Positions 13,417 to 63,632 of a stretch of 64,000 nt of DNA are shown one piece after another; position 1 is the first letter of the stretch; each line of letters begins with the position of its first letter. Under the pieces are notes generated by a model, which saw nothing but the letters and a program-made list of their open reading frames with translations, had not been told where the DNA came from and ran no database searches. Where the stretch lies: positions 25,265 to 89,264 of IMG/VR virus record IMGVR_UViG_2811995239_000002, one strand, 5' to 3'. The DNA is from a virus (taxonomy: Duplodnaviria; Caudoviricetes). Position numbers and translations under genes: made by a program.

Positions 13417-13808
13417 TGAATGCAACCGATTTTATTCTGAAGGTTAACCGCCTGCCGTGGATTGACCGCGCCTGTAGTTTCGATGCGGTGGATTGTTGGG
13501 GGCTGGTGGTTCTCTACTATCGCCATGTTCTCGGTGTTGAGATACATCAGACGCCGGACTACGAAGCCGGTAAAGACTTCATTACCTGCTATGAAGGTGA
13601 TCGTGTGTTCTGGCATCCGGGATTGCGTGCTTCAGGAAATATCGCTGTTTTCTACCGTGGTGATAATCCCGATCACATTGGCATAGTCATTGACGGTAAT
13701 CGTTGCCTGCACTCTCGTGGTATGGGCGAAGGAGTACGCATCGACCCGCTACCGGTACTTGAAAGGGTATTCACCAGAACGGAGTTTCTTCAGTATGGCG
13801 ACATTTGA
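13416..13808 (+). CDS. NlpC/P60 tail tip peptidase
   Basis: DCWGLV, HIGI and LHS motifs. Confidence 0.85.
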   Translation: MNATDFILKVNRLPWIDRACSFDAVDCWGLVVLYYRHVLGVEIHQTPDYEAGKDFITCYEGDRVFWHPGLRASGNIAVFYRGDNPDHIGIVIDGNRCLHSRGMGEGVRIDPLPVLERVFTRTEFLQYGDI

Positions 13809-19802: not shown

Positions 19803-20040
19803 TTTAAGCCTTTTATTTTGCTTATAATACTTTAGACATCAAACTCTACCATAGTTGCACTTTCTACAACAGCAATCAAAGTATATCTATATAGGGCGCG
19901 GCCTGTTTACCTGTAAGATATAGTCAGGATTCTGACCGCCGCACCTCCTATCCTCACGCCGCTACTCGTTTTTCTCGCAGGGAGTTCGGCATGGGAGGTG
20001 ACGTGTAATTTTTGTTCAGTAATGCCAGAGTATGGCGGAG

Positions 20041-20137
20041 ACTGTGATTTAAGTTGCCGCATCAGAGCGTATGCAAGACACTTATGCGGCCAGCTGGCGA
20101 TCGTTCGATAGTGCGAATATAGAATGGTTGGCAACTG
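20041..20137 (+). repeat. Conserved two-hairpin element, copy 1 (candidate ncRNA)
   Basis: 83/90 nt identical to 63635-63724; two stem-loops with GNRA loops. Confidence 0.85.
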
Positions 20138-20200
20138 CTGCGACGATACAACGACGCATGGGCTGGTGAGTTTGATGATTGTCCGGCGATGTATGTGGCA

Positions 20201-21370
20201 CTATTCCACCTTTTCATCTAACCAATCAGCCCACCATTGCATCATCTCCCGTCGCGTGTCGAGATAAGCCGCGTGATTGTACACTGACCGAGTACCACCG
20301 CTAACGTGCGCCAGTTGCATTTCTATCGCGTCTCTGTTCCAGTGCTTCTCGTTGAGAACGGTACTGAACTGGTGACGGAATCCGTGCCCGCTTGCCTGGC
20401 CTTCATATCCAATATTGCGGATCACGCCTAACACTGCGTTTTCGCTGATCGGTTTCTTCCTGTCGCTGCGTCCAGGGAAACACAATTCATACTGGCCGGT
20501 TATCTGTTGCAGAAACCTGAACAACTCCATGACCTGATCTGACATCGGGACAACATGCAACTTTCTCCCTTTCATGACGGAAGGATCAACGCTGATTAAC
20601 CTGTTTTCATAGTCAATTCCCGTCCATACCAACGATCGAAGCTCAACTGTACGCATGGCCGTATAGTGAAGAATCTGTGTTGCTATCTTAGAGATAACCC
20701 ATCCACCGTAACCGTTAAGAGCCTTCTGGAACTCGTGTATGCGGTGCATGGGAAGGAATGGGTAGTTTTTCTTCCTGTATCCTCGCATGGCTCCTGCCAG
20801 GTCTCTGGATGGATTGTATTTAGCCCTGCCAGTTACGATCGCATAACTGAACACTTCCCCGCATCTTCGCCTCGCCTTATCAGCGCGCTCCATTGCGCCT
20901 CTGTCTTCGAACAGCCTGATGATCTTCAGTAGCACCATAGGCTCAACATCTTCCATTTTCAGATGACCGATGACCGGCAGTATGTCGTCGGTGAACATGC
21001 TCATCATCTCGTCAGCATATCCCTTCGACCACACCTTTGATTTGTGCGCATGCCACTCACGGAAGATATCTCCGAACGAATCAGCCGCAGCTTCCTTCTC
21101 TTTCTTCTTTATGGCCTGTTTCTGCTCTGCCGGGTCCACACCTGCCAGCAACTTCATTTTTGCTTCTGACTGTTTTGCCCGTGCTTCAGTGAGGGAAATT
21201 TCAGGATAGGGGCCAATGACCAGCGTCTTTTCCTTGCCATCGAACCGGTAACGCATGCGCCACACCTTTTTACCTGATGGTGGAACGAACAGGAAAAGGC
21301 CTCCGGCATCTGCGAGGCGATATGATTTTTCCGCAGGCCTGGCTGCGTCTATTTGCTTTACCGTAAGCAT
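20201..21370 (-). CDS. intS: Tyrosine integrase, IntS (KplE1/HK620/Sf6)-like
   Basis: MLTVKQI start, GAMERA.KARRRCGEVF, HGFRH, QLAH, YNHA.YL and C-terminal REMMQWWADWLDEKVE; next to argW. Confidence 0.9.
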   Translation of the reverse strand: MLTVKQIDAARPAEKSYRLADAGGLFLFVPPSGKKVWRMRYRFDGKEKTLVIGPYPEISLTEARAKQSEAKMKLLAGVDPAEQKQAIKKKEKEAAADSFGDIFREWHAHKSKVWSKGYADEMMSMFTDDILPVIGHLKMEDVEPMVLLKIIRLFEDRGAMERADKARRRCGEVFSYAIVTGRAKYNPSRDLAGAMRGYRKKNYPFLPMHRIHEFQKALNGYGGWVISKIATQILHYTAMRTVELRSLVWTGIDYENRLISVDPSVMKGRKLHVVPMSDQVMELFRFLQQITGQYELCFPGRSDRKKPISENAVLGVIRNIGYEGQASGHGFRHQFSTVLNEKHWNRDAIEMQLAHVSGGTRSVYNHAAYLDTRREMMQWWADWLDEKVE

Positions 21371-21533
21371 GTGGGCATAAATCCGTGGTCATTTTGCTGT
21401 GTGCCCACAATATGCCCGCAAAAGTTTGGCGTAGTCAATTCTCTTTGGTTCGCTTCGGTTGTATAAGAACTTTGAATTATTAAGGTGTGATGGGCGTTAC
21501 GTTCTGGTGTGGAGTGGTGGGTTCGTTTTGAAA

Positions 21534-21608
21534 TGGTGTCCCCTGCAGGAATCGAACCTGCAACTAGCCCTTAGGAGGGGCTCGTTATATCCATTTAACT
21601 AAGGAGAC
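21534..21608 (-). tRNA. argW: tRNA-Arg(CCT)
   Basis: GTCTCCTTAGTTAAATGGATATAACGAGCCCCTCCTAAGGGCTAGTTGCAGGTTCGATTCCTGCAGGGGACACCA: full cloverleaf with encoded CCA. Confidence 0.97.
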
Positions 21609-21748
21609 GTAGAACTAACTGATTTTTAAGTGTTCTGCTTGCTTCGCATGTTATCCTATCAGCCCACGCCCCATCAAGCATTTCATTCCTTTTATTTCCC
21701 TTCCTTTCTTATCCATTCGTCTAAAAAATCACTTCGTTCACTTGCCAT

Positions 21749-21792
21749 TGCGTACAGATTGAGTACAGAATGCTGAAATTCAGTGTGTACAG
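21749..21792 (+). promoter_or_regulatory. Putative integrase arm-type sites (TGNGTACAG x3)
   Basis: Direct repeats at 21749, 21760 and 21784 just upstream of the int start. Confidence 0.5.
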
Positions 21793-21803
21793 GATACAAA
21801 GCC

Positions 21804-22973
21804 GTGGCCCTCAGTGATACCAAACTTCGCAGCATCAACGCCAAGCCTTATAACGGCGCCCCCGAAGTCACAGATGGTGACGGACTGAGTGTACGTATTA
21901 CCCCAACCGGAACGATTACGTTTCAGTACCGTTACCGCTGGAACGGTAAGCCTGTCCGTCTTTCTGTTGGCAGATACCCTGCAACGTCTCTCAAAGAGGC
22001 TCGCGTGATTGTCGGTGAAATGCGCGAATTGTACATCAAGGGGCTGAACCCTAAAAATTATTTTGCCAAAGAAGATGGTGAGTTAACGCTGAAGGAATGT
22101 CTTGATCAGTGGTGGACTAAATACGTTGAGACACTCAAGCCCAACACGCAGACGCTGTATAAGTCAGTTGTGTACAACACCATGTACAAAGAATTCCAGG
22201 ATGCACCGGTAGTCAATATCCCCGTTTCATCCTGGGTCAGGTTCTTCGATAAGCAGGAAAAGAAGAACGGCAAGAAAGCCAGAGTATTACTTCTCCAGCT
22301 ACGATCAGTGATGAACTGGTGCATCAGCCGTCAGTTGATCACATCATGTGAAGTATTGAAACTCAGCGTAAAAACCATTGGGAAAAAGCCAGATGTTGGT
22401 AGCCGGGTTCTCACCTATACCGAGCTTGCAAAGGTCTGGCTGGCGCTGGAAAACAGCAAGATCGTTACATCCAACAAAGTTCTTCATCAGTTGTTGTTGC
22501 TATGGGGGGCTCGACTGTCAGAGTTGCGACTGGCTACCGCAAGCGAGTTCAACATGGATGATCTGATTTGGACTACGCCGGAAGATCATTCCAAGATGGG
22601 TAATGTCATCCGCAGGCCTGTATTCGATCAGGTAAAGCCCTATATTGAAAGGCTGCTAAACGCAGGTAATGACGTTATTTTTCCAGGACAAAAGCTGGAC
22701 AAGGCAATAGACCGATCGTCGGCAAATCTCTACATGAAAAAGTTAAGGGAAAAAATAGACATACCGGAGTGGCGAACACATGACTTTCGGCGTTCACTGG
22801 TAACAAATTTGTCAGGGGAGGGAGTTATGCCCCACGTTCTGGAAAAGATGCTGGGGCATGAGCTTGGGGGAGTGATGGCGGTTTATAACAAACACGACTG
22901 GCTGGTGGAGCAGAAAGATGCTTATGAACTGTATGCCGATAAAATATTCTGGCATATTAAACAGCTCGGTTAA
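21804..22973 (+). CDS. Tyrosine integrase with arm-binding domain
   Basis: GTG start (ALSDTKLR); DGDGL, R..E, HDFRR, LGH, VYN catalytic motifs. Confidence 0.92.
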   Translation: MALSDTKLRSINAKPYNGAPEVTDGDGLSVRITPTGTITFQYRYRWNGKPVRLSVGRYPATSLKEARVIVGEMRELYIKGLNPKNYFAKEDGELTLKECLDQWWTKYVETLKPNTQTLYKSVVYNTMYKEFQDAPVVNIPVSSWVRFFDKQEKKNGKKARVLLLQLRSVMNWCISRQLITSCEVLKLSVKTIGKKPDVGSRVLTYTELAKVWLALENSKIVTSNKVLHQLLLLWGARLSELRLATASEFNMDDLIWTTPEDHSKMGNVIRRPVFDQVKPYIERLLNAGNDVIFPGQKLDKAIDRSSANLYMKKLREKIDIPEWRTHDFRRSLVTNLSGEGVMPHVLEKMLGHELGGVMAVYNKHDWLVEQKDAYELYADKIFWHIKQLG

Positions 22974-39593: not shown

Positions 39594-39986
39594 ATGTCCG
39601 ATCCTGTAACTGGTTCCGGCGCGATGCTCGGAGGTGGGCTGGTGGGTTCCGTAATTTACGGAATCTTCACTCATACCGATTTTGGCGTTGTATTTGGTGC
39701 GTTTGGTGGCGCGGTTTTCTACGTCGCAACGGCTGCAAATCTTACCCGTGGTCGTCTGGCTGCATACTTCATGACATCGTTCATTGTTGGTGTGCTTGGG
39801 GCCGGATTATTAGGCTCAAAACTCTCAGCATGGACAGGCTACAGTGATCGCCCGCTTGATGCGCTCGGCGCCGTGATTGTATCGGCCATCACTATCAAGG
39901 TGCTGACATTCATCAACAGTCAGGATTTGAACAGTCTGTTCGGTATGCTTTCGCGGCTTCGCGGAGGAGGGGGCAATGTTAAATGA
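39594..39986 (+). CDS. Putative holin
   Basis: Several TM segments, first lysis gene, basic C-terminus. Confidence 0.75.
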   Translation: MSDPVTGSGAMLGGGLVGSVIYGIFTHTDFGVVFGAFGGAVFYVATAANLTRGRLAAYFMTSFIVGVLGAGLLGSKLSAWTGYSDRPLDALGAVIVSAITIKVLTFINSQDLNSLFGMLSRLRGGGGNVK

Positions 39987-40254
39987 TCCTTCTGCATTCT
40001 TTAATGCGTTAATTTGTGGGGTGATCGTGGTTGCGCTGATGTTTTACCAGCGCGGCAGCGCGAGACATCGCCCTCTGATATCGCTGGTGGCCTACTTCAC
40101 AGTGCTGGTATATGCCAGCGTCCCATTCCGGTATCTGTTCGGTCTCTATCAGGAATCGCACTGGATGGTAGTCATCGTTAATTTGATCATCTGCGCCGCC
40201 GTGCTTAGGTCACGAGGCAATGTGGCGCGTCTCATAGATACTCTGAGGCACTAA
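39976..40254 (+). CDS. Phage holin family protein (DUF754-like)
   Basis: Three TM segments, ARHRP and RGNVA motifs. Confidence 0.75.
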   Translation: MLNDPSAFFNALICGVIVVALMFYQRGSARHRPLISLVAYFTVLVYASVPFRYLFGLYQESHWMVVIVNLIICAAVLRSRGNVARLIDTLRH

Positions 40255-40868
40255 TGAACCAATCACAGTTTCAGCAGGCGGCTGGTATAAGCGCCGGATT
40301 AGCTGCGCGCTGGTTTCCGCACATCGACGCGGCAATGAAAGAATTTGGAATTACAGCAGTTAACGATCAGGCCATGTTCATTGCACAAGTTGGACATGAG
40401 TCTGCTGGCTTTACCTCACTGGCAGAGAGTTTTAACTACTCGGTAGACGGGCTGAAAAAAACCTTTGGTAAACGCCTGACGCCGTATCAGTGTGAAATGC
40501 TGGGGCGCGTCGATGGTAAACAGGTCGCCCACCAACCGCAAATAGCCAATCTGGTTTACGGTGACCGCATGGGTAATCACAGCCAGGGTGATGGCTGGAA
40601 ATATCGCGGTCGTGGTCTGCTTCAAATCACTGGTCGAGAGAACTATACCCGGTGCGGTACAGCGTTGAAACTTGACCTTGTCAGTACGCCGGAACTGCTA
40701 ACGCAAGAGCGACATGCGGCCCGTTCGGCAGCATGGTACTTCACGTTGCGCGGTTGCCTCCTGTATTCGGGTGATGTGGAACGCGTCACGCAGATCATCA
40801 ACGGTGGGCAGAACGGCATTAAAGACCGCCGTGAACGTTACGCCAAAGCAAAAGCCGCCCTGGTGTGA
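40254..40868 (+). CDS. Endolysin, glycoside hydrolase family 19
   Basis: FIAQVGHES, YRGRGLLQITG, INGG.NG..DR. Confidence 0.93.
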   Translation: MNQSQFQQAAGISAGLAARWFPHIDAAMKEFGITAVNDQAMFIAQVGHESAGFTSLAESFNYSVDGLKKTFGKRLTPYQCEMLGRVDGKQVAHQPQIANLVYGDRMGNHSQGDGWKYRGRGLLQITGRENYTRCGTALKLDLVSTPELLTQERHAARSAAWYFTLRGCLLYSGDVERVTQIINGGQNGIKDRRERYAKAKAALV

Positions 40869-40874
40869 GGTCAT

Positions 40875-41150
40875 ATGGGACTTGAAATGATTATCGGCCT
40901 GGCTGTTGCTGTGCTGGCCGCAATTGCAGGCGCTTTTGGTTTCGGTCACGCGCGCGGCACCGACAAAGCGGAAGCCAAAGCCGAAAGGCAGCGCACCGAA
41001 GAGAACGCCGCAGCAACGGTCGCAGCAGCAGAGCGACAGGCAGAAGTGACCAGAGAGGCCAGTGATGTGCAAGAAACTGTTAAGCGTATGCCTGATGACG
41101 ACGTTGATCGTGAGCTGCGCGAACAATTCACCCGCCCCGGTGGTGGTTGA
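40875..41150 (+). CDS. i-spanin (Rz-like)
   Basis: N-terminal TM segment plus coiled coil after the endolysin. Confidence 0.75.
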   Translation: MGLEMIIGLAVAVLAAIAGAFGFGHARGTDKAEAKAERQRTEENAAATVAAAERQAEVTREASDVQETVKRMPDDDVDRELREQFTRPGGG

Positions 41151-41304
41151 TACGGGCTGCATGTGGACTCGGATTATCTATCTGACAGACCACGACATCA
41201 ATGTGCTGGATAAGCAGACGAAGCGCGACATCCTGGCGCATAACAAATCAGTGCAGGCTAACTGCAAGAAGGAGTCTGCCCGTGAACGCAGAGAACCTAA
41301 GTGA
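41065..41304 (+). CDS. o-spanin lipoprotein (Rz1-like)
   Basis: Lipobox LIVSC, overlaps the i-spanin, ILAHN motif. Confidence 0.75.
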   Translation: MCKKLLSVCLMTTLIVSCANNSPAPVVVDTGCMWTRIIYLTDHDINVLDKQTKRDILAHNKSVQANCKKESARERREPK

Positions 41305-41594: not shown

Positions 41595-41618
41595 AGCCTC
41601 GCAATAGCGGGGCTTTTT
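41595..41618 (+). terminator. Intrinsic terminator
   Basis: AGCCTCGC-AATA-GCGGGGCT hairpin followed by TTTT. Confidence 0.8.
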
Positions 41619-41620
41619 AA

Positions 41621-41713
41621 TGCGCATCGCACGCGCACATCGAAGAAAGTCTTTCAGCTGTGAGCCTGGGCAAACCGTTAACTTTCGGCGGCTTTGCCGT
41701 GCGACAGGCTCAC
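41621..41713 (+). ncRNA. Structured leader RNA candidate
   Basis: GTGAGCCTG/CAGGCTCAC stem enclosing GGCAAA-CCG...CGG-C-TTTGCC; preceded by a TGCGC/GCGCA hairpin. Confidence 0.5.
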
Positions 41714-41732
41714 GTCTAAAAGGAAATATCAC

Positions 41733-41906
41733 ATGCAATTAGGCGGAAAATCGAAAAACGGACTCAGAGCCTTCCTTCGCAGTGACGCAATCGTTATTGC
41801 TGATAAAAAAGGCAAACCCAAAGTGGTTATCGGTGTTTTTAACGAAGACGATAACGGGTTACGCAGCGTCAAGCCTTCAGCATTCAACAAATTAGGTCGC
41901 GCTTAA
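41733..41906 (+). CDS. 57-aa protein resembling a gpJ C-terminal beta motif
   Basis: AAGGA RBS; IVIADKKGKPKVVIG. Confidence 0.55.
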   Translation: MQLGGKSKNGLRAFLRSDAIVIADKKGKPKVVIGVFNEDDNGLRSVKPSAFNKLGRA

Positions 41907-41919
41907 AAGGGAACAAATC

Positions 41920-42669
41920 ATGAGTCAGAAAATTATTACTTTGTCCGGTGCCGCGACAGATGTTCTGTATGCGCTGTTCTACCGTGGCGCGTTGCAGAGT
42001 GGCGATCTGCCATCTAAATCTGGTGCTGCTGAGCTTCGCGATCTGGGCTTTACTGAAACCCGCCATACCGCGACGCAATATCAGAAGGAAAACTATTTTA
42101 CTTTCCTGACTGCCGAAGGGCAGGCGTTTGCTGTTGAGCACCTGGTAAATACGAACTTTGGTGTGCCTGCTGGTGGTTACATCGGCAGCCCTTTAGATGC
42201 ACTGGATGAAATTGCAGATCAAGGTGGCTACACTCCAGACGAAATGCGTGATGCCGTGGAATACATTAAGCGAACCAGGCAGACGAAAGCTTTAGGAAAA
42301 GCGCTGGCAGAACTATCTCCGTTTGTCATGAAGGACGGACAGGTATTTATCAAAGATGCTTTCATTCAACCTGTCACCACCGCTGGTACAAAAGTTGACT
42401 CGAATTCCGGCGGCTCCGCTACGTACAACTGCAACATGCGTATCAAAGTTGATGGAGCGGATAAAACAATTCGCGAGAAAGTTCATGCTGTAGTTTCCAG
42501 TTATCTCACCCCTGAGGCAACGGAGTATACCGATGAGCTGGTGGATGAGGTGATGAACCTGTTTGATAAGCCAGAGGTCAGCCGGTTGATTGATCGTTGT
42601 GTTACGGAGTCAGTCAGGCTGAACTGCCGTCCGGGTGGGCTCATCTGGCAGACGTTACGCAGATTGTGA
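41920..42669 (+). CDS. Mosaic protein: wHTH-like N-terminus, gpJ (DUF1983)-like motif and tape-measure C-terminal motif
   Basis: PFVMKDGQVFIKDAF and RPGGLIW segments match this phage's own gpJ and tape measure. Confidence 0.75.
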   Translation: MSQKIITLSGAATDVLYALFYRGALQSGDLPSKSGAAELRDLGFTETRHTATQYQKENYFTFLTAEGQAFAVEHLVNTNFGVPAGGYIGSPLDALDEIADQGGYTPDEMRDAVEYIKRTRQTKALGKALAELSPFVMKDGQVFIKDAFIQPVTTAGTKVDSNSGGSATYNCNMRIKVDGADKTIREKVHAVVSSYLTPEATEYTDELVDEVMNLFDKPEVSRLIDRCVTESVRLNCRPGGLIWQTLRRL

Positions 42670-42699
42670 GTTGTAAATGATAACAATTGTCATTTGAAT

Positions 42700-42745
42700 G
42701 GGTCCTCCCGGCGGGGTGGCCTGCCACGGGGCGGCGGGCGCGCGG
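42700..42745 (+). other. cos site: cosQ GGGTCCT (42700-42706) and cosN with predicted 12-nt end GGGCGGCGGGCG (42729-42740)
   Basis: Same layout as lambda cosQ/cosN, upstream of terS. Confidence 0.8.
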
Positions 42746-51963: not shown

Positions 51964-52296
51964 ATGAAGCTGGCGCGTGAGTTCGGTCGTCCCGACTGGC
52001 GCTCCATGCTCGCTGGCATGTCCTCAACGGAATATGGCGACTGGCATATTTTCTACCGGGACAATTTTTTTCATGACGTACAGCTTGACGCTCATTTCTC
52101 GGGGTTGCTCTACACCATTTCATCATTATTTTCCCTTAATCCGGATTTGACTCCTGACAGCTTCAGCATACTGACACCGGCTCCCGGCGATTTGCCGGAG
52201 GAAGAGCCGGATGACGACATGCTGATGGCGAAGGCGTCAGGAATGTCAGGAGGCGTTCGCTATGGCCCAGACGGCAGTGGGGGATCTGGTTGTTAA
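51964..52296 (+). CDS. Tail assembly protein T (C-terminal part of G-T)
   Basis: LAREFGRPDWR.MLAGMSS.EY. Confidence 0.88.
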   Translation: MKLAREFGRPDWRSMLAGMSSTEYGDWHIFYRDNFFHDVQLDAHFSGLLYTISSLFSLNPDLTPDSFSILTPAPGDLPEEEPDDDMLMAKASGMSGGVRYGPDGSGGSGC

Positions 52297-54820
52297 TCTT
52301 GACGTTAACTCGTCAAAATTTAACGAGCAGATCACTCATATTAACCGGCAGTTTAAACGAACAGGTGATGCGGCTAATGATACTGAGTTACGTATCCGGC
52401 AGGCGTTCTCACGTCAGGAAATTGCGGCAAAAAAAGCTGGTCTTTCTGTGGGGCAGTACTCGAATGCGATGCGTATGCTGCCTGCACAGTTTACGGATGT
52501 CGCGACGCAGCTGGCGGGCGGGCAGAGTCCGTGGCTTATCCTTCTGCAACAGGGCGGGCAGGTTAAGGACTCATTTGGCGGGATTATTCCCACGTTCCGT
52601 GCGTTGCTGGGGGCCGTATCGCCTTTGATGGTTGGTGTTGGCGCGCTGTCCGCTGCTACCGGCGCACTTTTTTACGCGTGGTATCAGGGATCATCCACAC
52701 TTTCAGATTTCAACAAAACACTTGTTCTTTCCGGTAATTCGGCAGGGCTTACCGCTGACCGGATGCTGGTGCTGGCAAGGAACGGACAGAGCGCCGGGCT
52801 GACGTTTAACCAGACGAACGAGGCGCTGACGGAACTGATCAACGCAGGAGTGCGCGCCGGGGCGAATTTCGATGACATGAGTCAGTCCGTTGCCCGGTTT
52901 ACCCAGGCGTCTGGCGTTCCTGTTGATAAAGTGGCGGCGGCATTCGGCAAACTGACAAGTGACCCGACGTCCGGCCTCATCGCGATGGCGCAGCAGTTCC
53001 ACAACGTTACAGCAGAGCAGATTGCGTATGTCGCGCAGTTGCAGCGCGCCGGGGATGAAGCCGCTGCGTTGCAGGCGGCAAACGATGCGGCAACCAACGG
53101 TTTTAATGAGCAGACAAAATCCCTGCGCGACAATATGGGGACGATTGAGTCGGCTGCCGATTCACTTAAGCGTGCTTTTAAATCGATGTGGGACGCGGCA
53201 CTGGATATCGGGCGCCCGGATACCGCACAGGAGATGGTCCGTAAGGCAGAGGCTGCGTTTAAACGCGCGGATGAGATCTGGAATCTGCGAAAAAATGATG
53301 GCTACGTTAATGATGAGGCGCGCGCCCGGTACTGGACTGACAGGGAGACAGCCCGGCTGGCGCTGGACATGGCGCAACAGCAGGCGGGCATTGCAAAAGC
53401 GAATGAGGAAAATGCTTCCCGTGAAGCTGCTGCGGAATCTGATCGGCAGAAATACGCCGCGCAGGCGCAGTCAAATTACGCCAGAACGCAGTCCGCGCTT
53501 GAGAAGTACACGGCCAGGCAGAACGAGCTTAATAAGGCGCTGAAAGAAGGGCGTATCCTCCAGGCTGACTACAACATCAATATGTCAGCAGCGAAAAAGG
53601 AGTACGAAGATTCCCTGAAAAAACCGCCAAAAACACCGGCGGTCAGAACACAGTCCGGAGTAAGGGCAACAGATACAGGCAATGCCCTGACGCTTGAGTT
53701 GCAGTCGCAACTAAAGACCTTGCAGGATCACAAGGGAATAAATGACACAATCAGCCAGCAGCGGCAGGATCTCTGGAAGCAGCAGTCACGTTTTGCTGTG
53801 CTTGAGGAAGCATCCCGTCAACGCGCCCTCACTGTTGAGGAAAAATCCCTGCTTGCAAGCAAAGATGAAGTGCTGGCCCGTGCAGAAATTAACGCACGGC
53901 TTGGCGATCAGATTGTTGCCCAGCAGCGCCTTAATACCCTTGCGGATCAGGCTGAAAAATTTTCTCAGCAACAGGCGGCACGGCAGGCAGGGATCGCCGC
54001 TCAGTCTCAGGGGCTCTCTGCACGTCAGGCCGAACGTGAGGTGGCGTTACAAAAACTGCGTGAGGCATACGGTACAAATCCGCAGGCTCTGCAGCAGGTG
54101 CTTACAGCGCAACAGGCCACTTATGATGCTGAAGATGCCCTGCGTTCAGACTGGCTTGCCGGGGCCAGGCAAGGCTGGGCAGAGTATCAGGATGCGGCCA
54201 CGAACGTCTTTTCCTCAGTGCAACAGATATCCCAGTCCACCTTTGGCGGGCTTGCGAATCAGCTGACACAATGGCAGACCACCGGGAAAGCGAGCATGAA
54301 AGAATTCACGTCATCGACGCTGAAAATGATTGCATCAGTCATTAATCAACTGATGGTGGCTTATGTCATTCAGAGTGCTATGGGCTGGGTTGGTGGTGGA
54401 ACAAAAGCCCCCGCGTCAGGGCAGTCGTTCGCCGTACCTTCCTATCGTCCCGCGACTTTTGATGGCGGTGGATTTACCGGGCATGGCGGTAAATATGATC
54501 CCGCCGGCATTGTGCATCGTGGTGAATTCGTCTTCACCAAGGAGTCAACCAGCCGCATTGGCGTTGCCAACCTTTATCGTCTTATGCGTGGATACGCCGC
54601 AGGCGGGCTCGTTGGTTCCGGTAATGTGCCGGTTCCTGTTCCAGGCGGCATCAGTGTTTATGCCCCGGTCAGTATCAGCCAGCAGAACGCTGGTGGAGAG
54701 GTCAGTCAGGCCAGTACCGCCGGAACGGCACGCCAGCTTCAGGGAATTATCCAGCAGGCCATCACTGATCGCCTGAAAAAGGAGGTGAGTCCGGGTGGAT
54801 TACTTTACTCCAGGGGGTAA
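52262..54820 (+). CDS. Tape measure protein H, lambda family
   Basis: LPAQFTDVATQLAGGQSP, GG.TG.GGKY.PAG.VHRGEFV, PGGLL end. Confidence 0.93.
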   Translation: MAQTAVGDLVVNLDVNSSKFNEQITHINRQFKRTGDAANDTELRIRQAFSRQEIAAKKAGLSVGQYSNAMRMLPAQFTDVATQLAGGQSPWLILLQQGGQVKDSFGGIIPTFRALLGAVSPLMVGVGALSAATGALFYAWYQGSSTLSDFNKTLVLSGNSAGLTADRMLVLARNGQSAGLTFNQTNEALTELINAGVRAGANFDDMSQSVARFTQASGVPVDKVAAAFGKLTSDPTSGLIAMAQQFHNVTAEQIAYVAQLQRAGDEAAALQAANDAATNGFNEQTKSLRDNMGTIESAADSLKRAFKSMWDAALDIGRPDTAQEMVRKAEAAFKRADEIWNLRKNDGYVNDEARARYWTDRETARLALDMAQQQAGIAKANEENASREAAAESDRQKYAAQAQSNYARTQSALEKYTARQNELNKALKEGRILQADYNINMSAAKKEYEDSLKKPPKTPAVRTQSGVRATDTGNALTLELQSQLKTLQDHKGINDTISQQRQDLWKQQSRFAVLEEASRQRALTVEEKSLLASKDEVLARAEINARLGDQIVAQQRLNTLADQAEKFSQQQAARQAGIAAQSQGLSARQAEREVALQKLREAYGTNPQALQQVLTAQQATYDAEDALRSDWLAGARQGWAEYQDAATNVFSSVQQISQSTFGGLANQLTQWQTTGKASMKEFTSSTLKMIASVINQLMVAYVIQSAMGWVGGGTKAPASGQSFAVPSYRPATFDGGGFTGHGGKYDPAGIVHRGEFVFTKESTSRIGVANLYRLMRGYAAGGLVGSGNVPVPVPGGISVYAPVSISQQNAGGEVSQASTAGTARQLQGIIQQAITDRLKKEVSPGGLLYSRG

Positions 54821-55954: not shown

Positions 55955-56691
55955 TGATGCGTGGAAAACTGATGGATGCCATCCGGCAGCATGTCGCTGC
56001 GGAATATCCGAAAGAAGCCTGCGGGGTGATTATTCAGTCTGGTCGTACACAGACGTTCATTCCCTGTCGCAATATCGCCGACAACCCGGAAGAAATGTTT
56101 ACGCTTTCTCCTGAAGACAGAATGGCCGCCGGGGAACTGGGCGACATCATTATGATTGTTCACTCACATCCTGACGTGGTGCAACTGGTGCCGTCAGAAA
56201 TGGACCGCATTCAGTGTGACTGGTCCGGTATTGAATGGGGGATCATGTCGTGGCCGGACGGTGATTTTTGCACAATCTCTCCGCGGGAAGAGCGGGATTA
56301 CGTCGGGCGTCAGTGGGTGCTCGGCTATGCGGACTGCTGGTCGCTGATCCGGGAGTATTATCAGCGTGAGTTTACTCTCTCGCTGGGGGATTACTCGGTG
56401 CCCTACGCGTGGTGGGAAGGTGGAAAAGAACACCTGTACGACGATAACTGGCAGCAGGAGGGTTTTGTCGAGGTTGAGCCCCGTGATATGCGACCCGGCG
56501 ATATTATCATGATGCGCGTTCAGGCGCCGGTCACTAACCACGCTGCGGTATATCTTGGCGACAACATTATTCTCCATCATATGTTCGGGCATCTGTCATC
56601 GCGTACGCCATATGGCAAATATTACCGTGACAGAACGGTGCGGGTGGTAAGGCATAAGGAGCTTACGGATGCTGAAAACGCTGATTCTTGA
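55954..56691 (+). CDS. Tail assembly protein K (JAB plus NlpC/P60)
   Basis: EACG, HSHP, DCWSL, NHAAVY. Confidence 0.92.
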   Translation: MMRGKLMDAIRQHVAAEYPKEACGVIIQSGRTQTFIPCRNIADNPEEMFTLSPEDRMAAGELGDIIMIVHSHPDVVQLVPSEMDRIQCDWSGIEWGIMSWPDGDFCTISPREERDYVGRQWVLGYADCWSLIREYYQREFTLSLGDYSVPYAWWEGGKEHLYDDNWQQEGFVEVEPRDMRPGDIIMMRVQAPVTNHAAVYLGDNIILHHMFGHLSSRTPYGKYYRDRTVRVVRHKELTDAENADS

Positions 56692-57286
56692 CGGCAGGAT
56701 GGCGAAGAAATTTGGCAAACGGCATCAGTATCACGTCGCTGATATTCGCGAAATGCTGAGGGCGATGTGTTCACAGGTGCCGGGTTTTAAAAAGTACATG
56801 TCAGAAGCGCATATGAAGGGGATTCGCTTCGCCTTTTTCAACGGGAAAAGCAATATCGGGCTTGAAGAGTTCGATATGACGCGGGGCGGCGATACCTACC
56901 GCATCATGCCCATCATTGAGGGGGCAAAAAATGCCGGGGTGCTTCAGATAGTCATCGGCGCCGTAGCGCTGGTCGCTGCCTTTTTCACTGCTGGCGGCAG
57001 TCTTGCTTTGTGGGGGGCGGCAATGAGTGCCAGCGCAATAACCGCCACAACGGTACTGACCGGCATTGGCGTTTCAATGATGCTGGGTGGAGTGGTTCAG
57101 TTACTCACCCCGCAGCCATCGTTTAATACTGGTGCTTCTTCCAGTACGGATAATAAACCCAACTATGCGTTTGGAGCGCCGGTCAATACGGTGGCTATGG
57201 GTTATCCCGTTCCTGTTCTCTACGGGGAGCGCGAAATTGGCGGGGCCATTATCAGCGCCGGCATGTACTCGAGTGACCAGCAATAA
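56669..57286 (+). CDS. Tail assembly protein I
   Basis: GGVVQLL.PQ, NT...G.PVPVLYG. Confidence 0.92.
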   Translation: MLKTLILDGRMAKKFGKRHQYHVADIREMLRAMCSQVPGFKKYMSEAHMKGIRFAFFNGKSNIGLEEFDMTRGGDTYRIMPIIEGAKNAGVLQIVIGAVALVAAFFTAGGSLALWGAAMSASAITATTVLTGIGVSMMLGGVVQLLTPQPSFNTGASSSTDNKPNYAFGAPVNTVAMGYPVPVLYGEREIGGAIISAGMYSSDQQ

Positions 57287-57917: not shown

Positions 57918-60900
57918 ATGCAACTTCTTCATGGTGAAACCATTATTCACGGTGCCAAAGGTGGCGGCGGTAAAGCGCATACGCCAGTAGAGCAACCTGA
58001 CGATCTGCTATCGGTGGCAAAACTGAAAATGCTGGTGGCACTGTCAGAAGGTGAAATTCAGGGTGACCTGACTGCCCAGCAGATTTTCCTCAATGACACA
58101 CCGCTGGCAAATGACAGCGGTGAATACAATTTCAAAGGTGTGAAATGGGAGTACCGTAAAGGCACTCAGGATCAGACCTACATCGCCGGCATGCCGGAAG
58201 TGGATAACGAGCTTGCCGTGGGCGTAACGGTCACCACCACTGCACCGTGGACGAGGCAATTTACTAATCTGTCCCTTGATGCGATCCGCATAAAGCTGAG
58301 TCTCCCCGTTCAGTATCTGTATAAAGATAATGGCGATATGGTAGGAACAGTCACGGAATACGCTATCGACTTATCAACGGACGGCGCGGCCTGGCAGACG
58401 GTCGTGAACGGCAAATTCGATGGTAAAACCACAACAGAATACCAGCGTGATCACCGCATAGACTTACCGGGCGCTGTAACCGGCTGGTCTGTTCGGGTAA
58501 GACGTATCACGGCAGATGCCAGCGGCTCTAACTCAAAACTGGTTAATGCCTTTAAAGTCTTTTCTTTTGCAGAGGTGATAGACAGTAAACTTCGCTATCC
58601 CAATACAGCGCTGTTATATGTTGAAGTGGACAGCAGCCAGTTTAACGGCAGCGCGCCGAAAGTCACCTGCAGGCCAAAGGGTAAGCTGATTAAGGTCCCC
58701 GATAATTATGATCCGGTAACGCGCACGTATTCAGGATCATGGTCTGGTGGCTTCAAAATGACCTACTCGAACAATCCGGCATGGGTTTTCTATGATCTGG
58801 TGCTGGATGAAATCTATGGTATGGGTACGCGCGTTGACGCATCCATGGTGGATAAGTGGGAACTGTATTCTATTGCTCAGTATTGCGATGAAAAAGTTTC
58901 AGACGGAGCAGGGGGAACAGAGCCACGGTTTACCTGTAACGTGTTCATCCAGAACCAGCAGGATGCTTATCAGGTCCTGCGCGATCTGGCCGCTGTGTTT
59001 CGCGGGATCACCTTCTGGGGTAATGAAAAAGTTTACGTTCAGGCTGATGTCCCGCAAACCGATGTTGACTGGGTTTATAACGCCTCCAATGTCATTGATG
59101 GCCTGTTCACTTATGCTGGTGGGTCTTATAAGAACCGCTACAGCTCCTGCCTTGTTTCCTGGTCCGATCCGCAGAATCACTACAGCGATACTGTAGAAGG
59201 TGTCTACGATTCAGAGCTTGTTGAGCGGTATGATGTGCGGCAGACAACGCTGACCGCAATTGGCTGCACTTCACAGAGCGAAGCACACCGGCGCGGGCGC
59301 TGGGTTCTGCTTTCAAACGCGAAGGATGGCACGGTGTCGTTTGGCGTAGGACTCGACGGGTACATTCCGTTGCCTGCGGAAATCATTGGTGTGGCTGACC
59401 CGTTCCGCGCCGGTAAGCAAAATGGTGGTCGCATCAGTGCGGTGAATGATCGCCAGGTAACACTTGATCGCGCAATTGACTATGCAGTAAACGATCGGCT
59501 GGTTGTTAACCTGCCAGACGGTAAAGCACAGACCCGGACAATCAGTGCCGTGAGCGCGGATAAAAAGACAGTAACAGTTGCCACTGCATTCAGCCAGCCG
59601 CCTGCTGCTGGTGCTGTCTGGGCAATTGACAGCGATAACCTGGCTATCCAGTATTTTCGGGTCACATCGATCGCAGCCAATGACGACAGCAACGGTGGTT
59701 TCACCATCACTGCCGTACAGCACGACCCCAATAAATACCGTTACATTGACGATGGTGTGCGCATTGAATCGCCGCCGGTTACGGTCACCCCGATTAATGT
59801 ACTGGAAGCCCCGAAAAATATCGTGATTACCGAGAGTGATCATGTGTCTCAGGGGCTGTCTGTTGCAAGCCTGGATGTCTCATGGGGCAAAGTGGATGGC
59901 GCCATTCGATACATGGCGCAGTGGCGTAAGGATAATGGTGACTGGATTAATGTTCCGGTCACCAGCGCACAGGGATTCTCCGTTCAGGGAATTTATACGG
60001 GCAGTTATGATGTGCGTGTGCGGGCGCTGAATGCGCAGGAAACGTCCTCTCCATGGGGTTATGCTGATACAACATACCTTTCCGGTAAAGCCGGTAAGCC
60101 AGGAACACCGACTAACCTGATTGCATCCGATGATGTTGTCTGGAACATCGATCTGACCTGGGCTTTCCCGGACGGCTCCGGGGATACGGCGTACACCGAG
60201 CTTCAGCGCTCAACGACCGACGACCACGCCAATCCAGAACTGCTCACGCTGGTTCCTTATCCCGCTGCGCGCTATCAGCATGGGCCAATGCCTGCCGGGG
60301 TGCGCCAGTGGTATCGTGCGCGTCTTGTCGATCGCATCGGTAACACTGGTGACTGGACGGAATGGGTCATGGGGACATCCTCCATTGATGTCAGCGACAT
60401 AGCCAATGACATTCTTGAGGACATGAAGGAATCTGACACGTTCAAAGACCTGATCGAGAGTGCCGTGGACAGCAATGAAAAAATTGCTGGCATGGCTGAT
60501 GACATTCAACAGCAGGCCGATGAACTGGAGCGGCAGGCGATGGAGATTCAGGAGAATGCCGACGGGCTGGCGCAGGCTGCGGTGAAAATCGATGAGATGT
60601 CGGTATCTATGGACGGTATTACCGGCGGCGTCAAAAACTCATCCATCGCCGTTATACAGAACAGCATTGCACAGGTAACAAGCAGACGTTCACAGACAGT
60701 GACGAATGCCGGTAACAGCGCCAGCATTGATCGTGTGGATACGACAATTGCCGACGCCAGCCAGGCCGTTGCCCGCGCTTTGACGACGCTGGATTCATCT
60801 GCCGGGGGTAACGTATCCAATGTGACAGATCTGGCCGAAACGCTGGCGGATTTTTCGCAGGCGTCAGCAACGAAGATCAACTCCCTGACTGTGACAGTTA

Positions 60901-61415
60901 ACGGGCAGACTGCGGCAATTAACCAGACCGCTCAGGCGGTAGCTGATGTAAATGGCAATCTTAGTGCGATGTATAACATTAAAGTTGCTGTTGATTCCAA
61001 TGGCCGCCAGTACGCAGCGGGAATGGGGATCGGGGTTGAAAACACGCCTTCCGGCATGCAGTCACAGGTACTATTCCTTGCAGATCGGTTTGCTGTAATG
61101 ACTCAGGCGGGAGGAACGGTATCGCTACCTTTCGTTATTCAGAATGGGCAGGCATTTTTCAATGATGCCTTTTTCCGTAATGCAAGTATTGAGTTCGGCA
61201 AAATCACTGACTCATTGCAGTCATCAAATTTCCTTGCCGGGGTTCGTGGATGGAGTTTACCTAAAAATGCCAGCCCGGAATTCCACGGGAAACTGTATGC
61301 AGACAGCGGGAATTTTGCATTTAACGGCGTAAATAACAAAGTTGTTCTCGATGGAAAAGGAGTCACTGTCAATTTATCTGGTGGCGGAAAGGTTGTTGTC
61401 GGAGAGTGGAGTTAA
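57918..61415 (+). CDS. Central tail fibre / host specificity protein J
   Basis: SEGEI.G, YPNTAL, NNPAW, EPRFTCN, FN3 repeats, DUF1983-like region. Confidence 0.95.
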   Translation: MQLLHGETIIHGAKGGGGKAHTPVEQPDDLLSVAKLKMLVALSEGEIQGDLTAQQIFLNDTPLANDSGEYNFKGVKWEYRKGTQDQTYIAGMPEVDNELAVGVTVTTTAPWTRQFTNLSLDAIRIKLSLPVQYLYKDNGDMVGTVTEYAIDLSTDGAAWQTVVNGKFDGKTTTEYQRDHRIDLPGAVTGWSVRVRRITADASGSNSKLVNAFKVFSFAEVIDSKLRYPNTALLYVEVDSSQFNGSAPKVTCRPKGKLIKVPDNYDPVTRTYSGSWSGGFKMTYSNNPAWVFYDLVLDEIYGMGTRVDASMVDKWELYSIAQYCDEKVSDGAGGTEPRFTCNVFIQNQQDAYQVLRDLAAVFRGITFWGNEKVYVQADVPQTDVDWVYNASNVIDGLFTYAGGSYKNRYSSCLVSWSDPQNHYSDTVEGVYDSELVERYDVRQTTLTAIGCTSQSEAHRRGRWVLLSNAKDGTVSFGVGLDGYIPLPAEIIGVADPFRAGKQNGGRISAVNDRQVTLDRAIDYAVNDRLVVNLPDGKAQTRTISAVSADKKTVTVATAFSQPPAAGAVWAIDSDNLAIQYFRVTSIAANDDSNGGFTITAVQHDPNKYRYIDDGVRIESPPVTVTPINVLEAPKNIVITESDHVSQGLSVASLDVSWGKVDGAIRYMAQWRKDNGDWINVPVTSAQGFSVQGIYTGSYDVRVRALNAQETSSPWGYADTTYLSGKAGKPGTPTNLIASDDVVWNIDLTWAFPDGSGDTAYTELQRSTTDDHANPELLTLVPYPAARYQHGPMPAGVRQWYRARLVDRIGNTGDWTEWVMGTSSIDVSDIANDILEDMKESDTFKDLIESAVDSNEKIAGMADDIQQQADELERQAMEIQENADGLAQAAVKIDEMSVSMDGITGGVKNSSIAVIQNSIAQVTSRRSQTVTNAGNSASIDRVDTTIADASQAVARALTTLDSSAGGNVSNVTDLAETLADFSQASATKINSLTVTVNGQTAAINQTAQAVADVNGNLSAMYNIKVAVDSNGRQYAAGMGIGVENTPSGMQSQVLFLADRFAVMTQAGGTVSLPFVIQNGQAFFNDAFFRNASIEFGKITDSLQSSNFLAGVRGWSLPKNASPEFHGKLYADSGNFAFNGVNNKVVLDGKGVTVNLSGGGKVVVGEWS

Positions 61416-61417
61416 AA

Positions 61418-62371
61418 ATGCCGGAAGGTATTCTGATTGATTATAATGATGGTCGTCCCGTCATGGAAATAACTGCGGGGCTTCGCGCCCCCAGTTTTTG
61501 CACTTCGTTTTCAGGCGAGTCGCCGCAAACGTCGCAAACAAATCAATATTATGAAGTTAACACACCGTTGATACCTGATTCTCAGGTCATCGTGGTGCCA
61601 ACAAATCCGATTTATATTTATGACTTTGCATATTACGCCATTGCAACGATGGGGAGTGTTACAAGAAATGGAAATTCAGGTATCAGGATCTCTATAGAGG
61701 TAATTAATGATAGCTGGATGATCCCAAACTGGTCTGGTTACGTTATGGAAATATTGCCAGCACAGACATATAAAGAGGGGCTGTTTGTATCAAGCTCGAC
61801 TGATTTTACTGCTATATCAAATAGCTCAAAATTAATGACATGTGCATATACAGGGCGCATTACAGTAAATGGCAGCGCACCTCTTCCGGTCAGCGGCATT
61901 CCTTTTGGGAAATGGGATAACCCGAATGTGTCGGTGGGGTTTGATGGCACCAACATCATTGTCCGCGACATTTCCTACACCGGGCGGGACGACGTTGCCG
62001 GAACGGCGACGATTGATCTGGTGATATTCAATCAGACAGCACCGGTTGGCGGCGATGGTATCACCATGACCAACGCTGCGGGTCAGGTGACGTTCTCCAC
62101 TCTGAAACGGCCTTTTGTATACGACCGGCAAATCCAGATCACCGACGCCTTCCAGAATATTGGCGGCGGGTACTGCCAGATAGTTTATACCGGGGCTCAG
62201 GTTCGGATGAATGGTGGTTACGCAAACCTCAGAACCAAAGGGGTGGTTATGTCAAGCGGCAGCGTCAGGTCTGCGTACAACAGAGTCGTGGGAAATTACA
62301 ACACCAGCCTGAACATGACAAAGAACAGAAACATCACCATGCCGATTCTTATTCTCCCGAGCATGTACTGA
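61418..62371 (+). CDS. Tail tip accessory protein (DUF6453-like)
   Basis: MPEGILIDYNDGRP start; follows J. Confidence 0.65.
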   Translation: MPEGILIDYNDGRPVMEITAGLRAPSFCTSFSGESPQTSQTNQYYEVNTPLIPDSQVIVVPTNPIYIYDFAYYAIATMGSVTRNGNSGIRISIEVINDSWMIPNWSGYVMEILPAQTYKEGLFVSSSTDFTAISNSSKLMTCAYTGRITVNGSAPLPVSGIPFGKWDNPNVSVGFDGTNIIVRDISYTGRDDVAGTATIDLVIFNQTAPVGGDGITMTNAAGQVTFSTLKRPFVYDRQIQITDAFQNIGGGYCQIVYTGAQVRMNGGYANLRTKGVVMSSGSVRSAYNRVVGNYNTSLNMTKNRNITMPILILPSMY

Positions 62372-62471
62372 CCCTGCAAAAAGCATAGTTAAAACCGATA
62401 TCAGAACATTTCATCAATGAGCGTCCAACATGACGCTTTTAGTTTTCTGTCGCCTGAATTCAGGAGCTACC

Positions 62472-63632
62472 ATGATTTATAACACCGGCACAATCGCCAT
62501 TAACGGAAATGCCGCCATCGGCACAGGCACGAACTGGACCGCGCCAGCCAGCCAGATTCGCGTGGGTCAGACTATCATTGTGCTGTCTAACCCTGTCCAG
62601 ATGTTCCAGATTACGACAATCAATAGCGCCACTTCCCTGACGGTTACGCCAGCTGCGTCACCGGCACTCAGTGGGCAGAAATACGGTATTCTGGTATCAG
62701 ACAATCTGTCTGTTGACGGGCTGGCGCAGAGTATTTCCCAACTGATTAACGAATATGATGAGAATATCAGCGCATGGGAGACTTTTGCTTTAACGAGCGC
62801 TAACCAGACGATCAATGTCACCATAAACGGCACACCAGTTTCTATTCCTGCCCTGGGTAAACTTGTACAGAAAGGGGTAAACGGTGCAGTACCCATTAAC
62901 CAGGGGGGCACTGGTTCAACTTCTGCATCCGGCGCTCGCACCAGTCTGGGGCTTGGTGACGTTGCAGTCATGAACTACGACACTCATGTCAGAGGTGGGA
63001 TTGCCAATAAATCATTAGAAAACGAAGGGGACTTTAATTCTGCGCCACAGGGTTGGTCTCGGTTTACGTCGCCAAATGGCGCCCCGGCTTCTTCCCCGGA
63101 AGGAACAACTTGGGGAAACCTTTTCACAATCTGCTCTAACGGGTTACAGGCGGGTAATGCAAGTACATCTTTTGGTGGTTGGTACTGGAAACAACTGTAT
63201 TACAGCAACAACAATGTAATATTTCATCGCACTAAAGTGAGCGAGAGCTCATGGAGTATTTGGTATCAGTTAACCCAGTCATCAGTTTCCGATGAGGCTT
63301 TAAAAAACAAAGGAGAAACGCTCGACCCGGAAGAAGCGCTCAGTAATGTGAATGCTATGGATTTCCTGCATTTCACTTATAAATTTGACGAGAAAAACAC
63401 ACCACGCAGAGGTGTCATCTCTCAGCAAATCATGGGGATTGATCCGCAATATGTTAAGAAAGTCGGGGAGTATTACCATCTTGACGAGACACCAATGCTT
63501 CTTGACGGGCTGGCAGCAATAAAAGCATTGCGGAAGCGGGACGAAGATAACAAGTTACGCATTCAGGAGCTTGAAAGCGGTATTGAAGAATTAAAGAGAG
63601 TTGTCCGTGAGCTTGCAGATAGTGCTTCTTAA
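62472..63632 (+). CDS. Side tail fibre with C-terminal S74-type intramolecular chaperone
   Basis: MIYNTGTI N-terminus, GGTG...AR..LGLG, SD..LK, RRGVI.QQ...IDP.YV, terminal coiled coil. Confidence 0.85.
   Translation: MIYNTGTIAINGNAAIGTGTNWTAPASQIRVGQTIIVLSNPVQMFQITTINSATSLTVTPAASPALSGQKYGILVSDNLSVDGLAQSISQLINEYDENISAWETFALTSANQTINVTINGTPVSIPALGKLVQKGVNGAVPINQGGTGSTSASGARTSLGLGDVAVMNYDTHVRGGIANKSLENEGDFNSAPQGWSRFTSPNGAPASSPEGTTWGNLFTICSNGLQAGNASTSFGGWYWKQLYYSNNNVIFHRTKVSESSWSIWYQLTQSSVSDEALKNKGETLDPEEALSNVNAMDFLHFTYKFDEKNTPRRGVISQQIMGIDPQYVKKVGEYYHLDETPMLLDGLAAIKALRKRDEDNKLRIQELESGIEELKRVVRELADSAS

Follow-up and report, generated by a model that had tools for sequence, protein, structure and literature searches.

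Two defences that block phage tail assembly stand closest to the gene described here. In phage phi80, orf63 encodes TaiEcA and orf64 its antidote AtiEcA, both near orf66; mutations that escape Tai lie in the C-terminal part of the fibre protein J, and the specificity of Tai turns on single residues (PMC11364771). Sensitivity to the second defence, Tab, maps to the C-terminus of the tape measure protein (PMC10884400). The corresponding counter-defences, Ati and anti-Tab, are small and bind the defence protein (PMC11364771, PMC10884400), and PMC11364771 cites a ubiquitin-like system by which the central fibre is tagged. We analysed a stretch of 64,000 nucleotides (the window; positions 25,265 to 89,264 of the IMG/VR record IMGVR_UViG_2811995239_000002), which is part of an 89-kb provirus record and whose right half is a lambda-like prophage. 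Our subject is open reading frame (ORF) 41920, a gene that appears to combine pieces of both tail regions hit by these defences, together with its small upstream neighbour, ORF 41733.

A preliminary description of this DNA, made from the letters alone, had noticed gpJ-like and tape-measure-like motifs in ORF 41920 and a resemblance to the gpJ end in ORF 41733. It proposed either decoys that absorb tail-blocking defence proteins, which it favoured, or inhibitors of rival phages' tails. Its coordinates and letters for the two ORFs (41920-42669 and 41733-41906) were correct, both ORFs exist, and the defences which it had named do act on these regions, Tai on the C-terminal part of J and Tab on the tape-measure C-terminus. 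As we argue below, ORF 41920 may rather be a mimic of the tape-measure end that acts on gpI-type proteins.

Tail-tip modules of ORF 41920

One line of evidence for our interpretation concerns the C-terminus. In lambda, residues 818-849 of the 853 residues of the tape measure gpH are present in three copies and bound to residues 134-222 of three gpI chains (PMC12617516). The C-terminal coiled coil of gpH is described as interacting with gpI (PMC11101478), and the same arrangement of a tape-measure end and a gpI-type protein is found in an F-type pyocin (PMC13455828). The preliminary description had aligned the end of ORF 41920 with that of the window's own tape measure. The pairwise likeness is weak (6/21 identities, E 0.032), and it was borne out by profile comparison: hhalign joined the family of ORF 41920 to the tape-measure profile with a probability of 97% and P 8.4e-11 over 33 columns. 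The best of 30 column shuffles reached P 0.027, and the reversed alignment had a probability of 6.7%. No Pfam match to TMP_2 or Tape_meas_lam_C was found in ORF 41920, and the last 33 columns alone are shared with tape measures. Judging by these comparisons, the C-terminus and the final ~33 residues of lambda-type tape measures are homologous.

The shared end can be summarised as a short pattern. All 120 tape-measure homologues end with [PA]GG[LIVM][LIVM][WYF]. The family was represented by 120 listed homologues out of 626, and family counts out of 120 refer to these; 109 of them end with GGx[LIVM][WYFH] and 42 with the strict form, and even distant members retain the tape-measure-like end. 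A six-frame translation of the window contains the end motif twice, at exactly these two C-termini (mean 0.395 and maximum 3 in 200 shuffles). When a tape-measure tail was used as query, it matched the family gene itself in one record (G020, E 3.2e-4). The pyocin tape-measure end (25vf_5, residues 572-607) aligned to the window's tape-measure end with E 0.2, and the last 50 residues of ORF 41920 gave no meaningful match among PDB sequences.

We surveyed 50 records carrying the family gene for gpI, and 31 of them have a gpI homologue. The tape measure ends with a helix, PG[GST]x[LI][WY] and a basic tail in all 27 gpI-bearing records with a readable end, and in none of the six whole records without gpI. 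Tape-measure-sized ORFs of these six records end differently, and the only protein bearing the motif is the family protein. A further record, G007, was left out of the set without gpI, since it ends right after the tape measure. The variants at tape-measure ends were PGGLLY, AGGVLY, PGGLIW, PGGIIW, PGGDIW, PGSPLW and PGTPLW (window 54716-54811; L164-L180, L234-L245). Because of this distribution (27/27 with gpI, 0/6 without), the motif appears to behave as a gpI-docking peptide in tape measures, and the coupling is useful for annotating siphophage tail tips. Neither a J hub (PF13550), nor a sheath (PF04984), nor a P22 head-binding domain (PF09008) was found in records G005, G007 and G013; G005 does have gpI and its record begins just beyond the gpI gene.

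The second borrowed part resembles gpJ. The fibre part of lambda J consists of fibronectin type III (FNIII) domains, a three-helix shaft, a beta-sheet prism and a receptor-binding domain (PMC11101478). Residues 134-150 of ORF 41920 (nt 42319-42369) align with gpJ residues 1071-1087 (nt 61128-61178) with 9/17 identities (BLASTP E 9e-4), or 9/15 over the shorter stretch that had been noticed first. PF09327 (Phage_Tail_Tip) matched residues 133-165 with E 2.3e-4 and 21.4 bits, the gathering cut-off being 22, and scored 22.2 bits when the frame neighbours were included. The only PF09327 matches in the whole provirus record are J and ORF 41920 (E 1.1e-5). The same domain was found in 42 of 51 aligned family members at E <= 0.01 (best E 6e-12), precomputed annotation reports it for 37/120, and the ESM Atlas gave the PF09327 link again for the C-part of ORF 41920 (score 0.90). 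Member P0109 aligned to the C-terminus of the window's J over 96 residues (E 3e-9), and hhalign of the family against this C-terminus (P 2.1e-4) placed residues 154-184 on the YNIKV...GMGIGVE block of J. Pfam found none of the gpJ hub domains (Phage-tail_3, FNIII-A_GpJ) in ORF 41920. We regard the segment as homologous to the gpJ central fibre on these alignments, and the gpJ motif of the preliminary description thus holds.

The remaining part is the N-terminal domain (residues 1-80), which is conserved more strongly than any other part of the family and has nearly invariant residues. Its AlphaFold2 (AF2) model, built from a 57-sequence alignment, had a predicted local distance difference test (pLDDT) score of 81.0 and a predicted template modelling (pTM) score of 0.70. 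Foldseek placed MarR-type regulators nearest in the PDB (E 2e-3 to 3e-2, probability 1.00, TMq 0.60-0.67). The model predicts a winged-helix, MarR-like fold of three helices and a beta-hairpin wing, in agreement with the winged helix-turn-helix (wHTH) head suggested at the outset. The domain is carried by 94 representative clusters, in some as a stand-alone protein and in others joined to different partners; jumbo phages have it too. Ten distant proteins with the N-domain, scanned with Pfam, revealed no informative partner domains, and the BFVD neighbours of the domain are all uncharacterised proteins.

Outside the N-domain, the only family positions conserved in at least 90% of members are G140, A147, I149, P238, G239 and G240, exactly the two places picked in the preliminary description. 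The motifs are therefore conserved among homologues, significant in profile searches and homologous to parts of J and the tape measure. AF2 modelled residues 181-249 as helices (block-mean pLDDT 78-90), and the whole-protein model gave no Foldseek match in the PDB at E <= 0.001. The family profile matched an F2-pyocin fibre weakly among PDB sequences (E 0.11), next to tetanus toxin fragments that we take as chance rows. We found no longer proteins with residues 95-249 in fused form, which is weak evidence, and NCBIfam and PADLOC scans of the window ORFs gave no useful match.

Family, genomic slot and exchange

ORF 41920 is 42% identical to phi80 Orf66 over the full length (BLASTP E 5e-55). It matches two PHROGs of unknown function, phrog_16910 (E 2.3e-58) and phrog_17079 (E 6.8e-47), and has 626 homologues at E <= 0.001 in a large protein collection. 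Orf66 is also known as PHI80_66 and ORF x171.28 and is annotated as 'similar to N15 gp59'; the phiKO2 counterpart is Gp59. Database names are often 'Fur-regulated protein' or 'phage tail tip fiber protein', the latter given by NCBI to some members. Searches for the family names yielded no paper, and phi80, N15 and the mEp phages are not mentioned in the accessory-gene screen preprint 10.1101/2023.04.06.535777 according to a term look-up. Within a limited paper collection we also found no mention of a C-terminus homologous to the tape-measure end, of a coupling of this end to gpI or of a tape-measure-mimic reading. The build of ORF 41920 is a conserved winged-helix head (a model-based prediction), a mosaic J-like middle and a tape-measure-like C-terminus. 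The P[SAT]KSG core of the N-domain is present in ORF 41920 and 106/120 homologues; the J-like blocks of the middle are combined differently from member to member, and few members have other N-termini.

The family gene is the last gene of the right arm. In the window, phi80 and related loci, the order is always lysis genes, family gene and cohesive-end site (cos) with terminase. In 80 related viral loci, Rz homologues were recognised upstream of the gene 25 times and terL homologues downstream of it 24 times, the reverse order never occurs, and the order is kept wherever lysis or terminase genes are recognisable. Tai homologues precede the family gene in 16 of these loci and Ati homologues in 14. 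As the preliminary description held, ORF 41920 lies outside the tail operon and is co-oriented with the late operon. The tape measure, gpI and gpJ are 10-15 kb downstream (J at 15 kb).

Within this slot the gene behaves as a cassette that is exchanged between phages nearly identical elsewhere. A provirus related to the window (record G002; L007 / L084 / L164) has packaging and tail genes 98-100% identical to those of the window (terL 100%, nu1 99%, gpI 98%, tape-measure tail 98%), yet its family allele is only 47% identical; it has no ORF 41733. We also asked whether the borrowed segments are copies of the carrier's own J and tape measure. Of 30 records, one had the cognate J as the top match of the J-like part; for the window, its own J ranked 28th of 30. 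The mean score was 25.0 bits for cognate and 22.6 bits for non-cognate pairs, with a permutation p of 0.0078 that is inflated by related records. One C-terminal allele of the family occurs with two or three different tape-measure ends. The idea of copies was rejected, as the alleles do not track the carrier's tail genes.

ORF 41920 would be expressed late, because a consensus scan of the stretch from the terminator to the ORF found nothing promoter-like and because the genes of the counterpart region of phi80 are Q-dependent (PMC11364771). The RNA-library runs contained small shares of the stretch only, as genome-length contigs, and show neither transcription nor its absence. A Fur-regulated promoter, as the database name would suggest, was considered and dropped: the only Fur-box-like site is downstream of the gene, in cosQ, in the window as well as in phi80. 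The site in the window matches the consensus at 14/19 positions, a score reached by 9/300 shuffles, and that of phi80 (L001 3733-3757) lies at the same place, inside the annotated cosQ, with 15/19. This sequence may be the origin of the name 'Fur-regulated protein'.

Proposed mode of action and alternatives

We propose that ORF 41920 may be a trimeric mimic of tape measure and fibre which binds gpI-type tip proteins in trans, and we give this reading a probability of roughly 0.35. It is based on a C-terminus homologous to a gpI-coupled docking peptide, on the trimer-forming stalk modules and on the independence from the carrier's tail genes. The protein would form a trimer imitating the tip-proximal end of the tape measure. 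Docked on gpI-type proteins, with a short stalk and a globular head sitting where the tape measure belongs, the trimer would be a competitor of the genuine tape measure and would upset assembly of the tail tip. A foreign lambda-type tail, made by a co-induced prophage or by a superinfecting phage, would be a more likely target than that of the carrier, because some carriers have neither gpI nor a tape measure with the motif and the alleles do not follow the carrier's tail genes. We infer the binding, the oligomeric state, the timing and the phenotype.

Several observations weigh against this proposal. First, 20 of 27 near-complete carriers have gpI themselves; the family gene would be co-expressed with the carrier's own tail genes, and an inhibitor would need self-immunity. 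A role in defence would in turn need expression in lysogens. The mimic model leaves the role of the wHTH head unexplained, and the borrowed modules are all trimerisation elements, which may serve as a scaffold only. The AF2 model of the whole protein is poor (pLDDT 61.8, pTM 0.30). Moreover, the 45-residue tape-measure tail of the window did not find the end of lambda gpH in a PDB search, so that gpH 818-849 was identified as the counterpart from its position and from the F-pyocin sequence and not from the lambda letters. Finally, the phi80 report, which tested only the phage's own titre, mentions no defect of Δorf66 (PMC11364771).

A bolder version of the proposal seems improbable to us. The family would then be a 'fake tape measure', a portable phage-versus-phage weapon capping the tail-tip initiator of any lambda-type rival in the cell, which would then release heads devoid of tails. 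An HK97-type tail would make its carrier naturally immune, mismatch or timing would protect lambda-type carriers, and ORF 41733 could be a second mimic or an immunity factor.

Among the other explanations, the one that survives best, doubtful as we consider it, is that the J-like and tape-measure-like pieces are recombined trimerisation modules with no link to tails, and that function resides in the head, its ligand being DNA, RNA or a host protein. Trimers are formed by the AHS, by the central straight fibre and by the tape-measure end alike (PMC11101478, PMC12617516, PMC13455828), the N-domain is the best conserved part and is also found alone or with other partners, and the middle of the family is highly mosaic. 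The independence of the alleles from the tail genes and the retention of the end motif in phages without gpI fit this explanation as well. However, the strict association of the motif with gpI in tape measures points to a docking peptide and not to a general coiled-coil cap, the donors are two separate tail-tip proteins, and the PGG is at least 90% conserved in a family whose middle varies freely.

The decoy favoured by the preliminary description appears unlikely. A mimic made late would soak up host or prophage proteins targeting the J fibre or the end of the tape measure, be they Tai-like, Tab-like or of the ubiquitin-like tagging system, and so spare the real tail parts. The regions hit by Tai and Tab and the tagging of the central fibre (see above) agree with this, as do the slot shared with tai and ati and the late co-expression, mosaicism and dispensability expected of an arms-race gene. 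In phi80, however, deletion of ati alone cuts the titre and leads to Tai autoimmunity with orf66 still intact (PMC11364771), and among the single deletions of orf62, orf64, orf65 and orf66 a defect is reported for orf64 only. There is also no cognate match of the segments to the carrier's J or tape measure, whereas Tai discriminates single residues, and six carriers without gpI have no motif-bearing tape measure to protect. The known counter-defences are small proteins that bind the defence protein (see above). A TaiEcA homologue was not found in the whole provirus at E <= 1, which is a weak negative. We found nothing relevant on central-fibre decoys in the literature, judged by titles and abstracts. 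The decoy of the carrier's own tail is thus not upheld, and the second option of the preliminary description, action on rival tails, seems to fit the alignments and gene distributions better.

The preliminary description had also named identity with a Tai or anti-Tai family as a point to check. ORF 41733 did not align to AtiEcA at E <= 100, and the best BLASTP matches of ORF 41920 were at E 69 to TaiEcA and E 1.7 to AtiEcA, which is no likeness. By sequence, neither ORF appears to be one of the described Tai or anti-Tai genes, though they share the slot. As a side observation, phi80 TaiEcA itself (L001 2014-2628, minus strand) weakly matched CARF-HEPN models of PADLOC (E 0.004 and 0.012), which hints at a possible HEPN-like fold of Tai.

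Least probable is that the protein docks on the carrier's own gpI as a chaperone or placeholder, or rides the tail tip and enters with the DNA; the homology of its end to the gpI-docking tape-measure end, the joint expression with the tail genes and the presence of gpI in most near-complete carriers speak for it, and against it stand the six carriers without gpI, the exchange of alleles irrespective of tail genes, the distance from the tail operon, the phi80 Δorf66 deletion without a reported defect and the absence of any virion proteomics that we could find.

Returning to the mimic of the tape-measure end, the question concerns an accessory gene that ranks among the commonest in temperate enterobacterial phages and is carried also by phi80 and N15. 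The build from two tail parts that are hit by known tail-blocking defences gives a concrete hypothesis testable in K-12 phages, and so does the borrowing of a gpI-docking tape-measure end. If ORF 41920 does bind gpI, molecular mimicry of an assembly interface would be added to the known modes of tail-assembly interference, and the free movement of the cassette among phages would be explained.

The locus and its comparison with described systems

The features of the locus are listed in Table 1. The position of both ORFs between the lysis genes and cos, behind a terminator-like hairpin, agrees with the preliminary description.

Table 1. Features of the locus and of the downstream tail genes, in positions of the window
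Feature	Position	Strand	Basis or remark
Holin, endolysin, Rz/Rz1	39594-41304		lysis genes, upstream of the cassette
Small ORF 41201	ends 41512		between Rz/Rz1 and the terminator
Terminator-like hairpin and T run	41595..41614	+	consensus scan; same stretch annotated 'terminator' in HK639, 97.5% identity
Conserved structured leader	41615..41732	+	~120 bases, non-coding; 94-97% identity to HK639, mEp237, mEp043, mEp213 and others
ORF 41733	41733..41906	+	57-aa basic protein; optional cassette between leader and family gene
ORF 41920	41920..42669	+	249 aa; phi80 Orf66 / N15 gp59 family
Predicted winged-helix N-domain, residues 1-80	41920..42159	+	AF2, Foldseek, family conservation
gpJ central-fibre-like segment, residues 134-184	42319..42471	+	GQVFIKDAFI strand motif and block like YNIKV...GMGIGVE of J
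Tape-measure-type C-terminal helix and PGGLIW, residues 214-247	42559..42660	+	hhalign with controls
Fur-box-like sequence in cosQ region	42673..42691	+	directly after the stop codon of ORF 41920
Probable cosN (cohesive-end site)	42729..42741	+	base 1 of phage LLS (annotated cohesive end) aligns to 42729
DUF1441-type small terminase (nu1)	starts 42846
Large terminase (terL)	starts 43346
Tape measure protein	52262..54820	+	Pfam TMP_2, Tape_meas_lam_C; lambda gpH chain 8iyk_H, E 5e-20
gpI-type tail-tip assembly protein	56669..57286	+	Pfam Lambda_tail_I; PDB 8iyk_I, E 1.9e-32; F-pyocin 25vf_9, E 1.8e-43
gpJ central tail fibre	57918..61415	+	PF09327 on residues 1000-1126; motif at 61128-61178

ORF 41733 is a real gene and an optional cassette. 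In 4 of the 80 viral loci the family gene is immediately preceded by a full-length homologue with 53-61% identity, and a related contig joins 41727 to 41915, thus lacking exactly the 187-base insert with ORF 41733. No match was found in Pfam, PHROG, PADLOC, phage tblastn or the ESM Atlas. The resemblance to the gpJ end seen in the preliminary description could not be established: BLASTP did not find the alignment, and profile comparison gave P 0.0012 with a probability of 19.5% over 23 columns. The score exceeded 57/57 valid shuffles, while 3 of the 60 shuffles made were artefactual, with scores of ~130. We consider this likeness too weak as a foundation for interpretation. The ribosome-binding sequences before ORF 41733 and ORF 41920 are alike (TAAAAGGAAAT and TAAAAGGGAAC, respectively), as if the insertion had duplicated the start region.

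The leader contains a hairpin (41650-41723) with the arms GTGAGCCTG and CAGGCTCAC, in which the ribosome-binding site of ORF 41733 is partly paired. Its minimum free energy is -41.2 kcal/mol (z -1.93), and 10 of 200 shuffles fold equally well. Rfam gave no match at E <= 1 over the leader and both ORFs and four weak matches elsewhere in the scanned 4.5 kb. The leader is conserved in many lambdoid phages, and in other phages other accessory genes lie behind it. A 166-nt RNA-library contig (run X19) consists of just the leader element with other flanks.

Downstream of J we observed a DUF6453 protein (61406-62371) and a 400-aa protein with a Peptidase_S74 intramolecular chaperone (62430-63632), which are probably side-fibre genes. 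The left third of the window (1-22973) holds a second, different set of phage ORFs of structural and tail size (e.g. 10141-12480, 13690-16302 and 16367-18625), followed by three ORFs of 375-396 aa at 18675-22973. The window looks like two elements in tandem.

Compared with described proteins, residues 1-80 of ORF 41920 share the predicted fold of MarR-type regulators. However, only the wHTH core is present, the MarR dimerisation helices are absent, identity is 12-23% and there is no Pfam match. With gpJ, whose PF09327 region corresponds to the central straight fibre in lambda, ORF 41920 appears to share a homologous strand motif and the adjacent block. It differs in having ~250 instead of 1165 aa, no hub, FNIII or receptor-binding domains and another order of blocks, and its gene lies outside the tail operon, unlike J. 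With the end of lambda-type tape measures (lambda gpH 818-849 and the F-type pyocin tape measure) it shares an amphipathic helix, PGG, two aliphatic residues, an aromatic one and a basic tail. It has nothing of the tape-measure body, and its binding to gpI is putative.

The Tab-sensitive region described for Pseudomonas prophages (PMC10884400) corresponds to the region that ORF 41920 seems to imitate. The host is different, and the Tab locus lies between the terminase genes, whereas ORF 41920 lies upstream of cos and nu1; this comparison was made by description. Tai and Ati of phi80 (PMC11364771) occupy the same genomic slot and concern, like the proposed function, tail assembly of the J type, and Ati is made from the late operon, as ORF 41920 would be. 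Tai, however, is constitutive and on the opposite strand, Ati acts by binding Tai, and neither resembles either ORF in sequence. The closest relatives are phi80 Orf66, N15 gp59 and phiKO2 Gp59, with full-length homology (42% identity for phi80 and 31% for phiKO2 Gp59), the same N-domain, strand motif and C-terminal PGG, and the same place as last gene before cos. They differ from ORF 41920 in the mosaic of the middle part, and the window has the small ORF 41733 in addition. ORF 41920 is thus a member of a known but uncharacterised family, of which some members already have the J domain flagged in public annotation.

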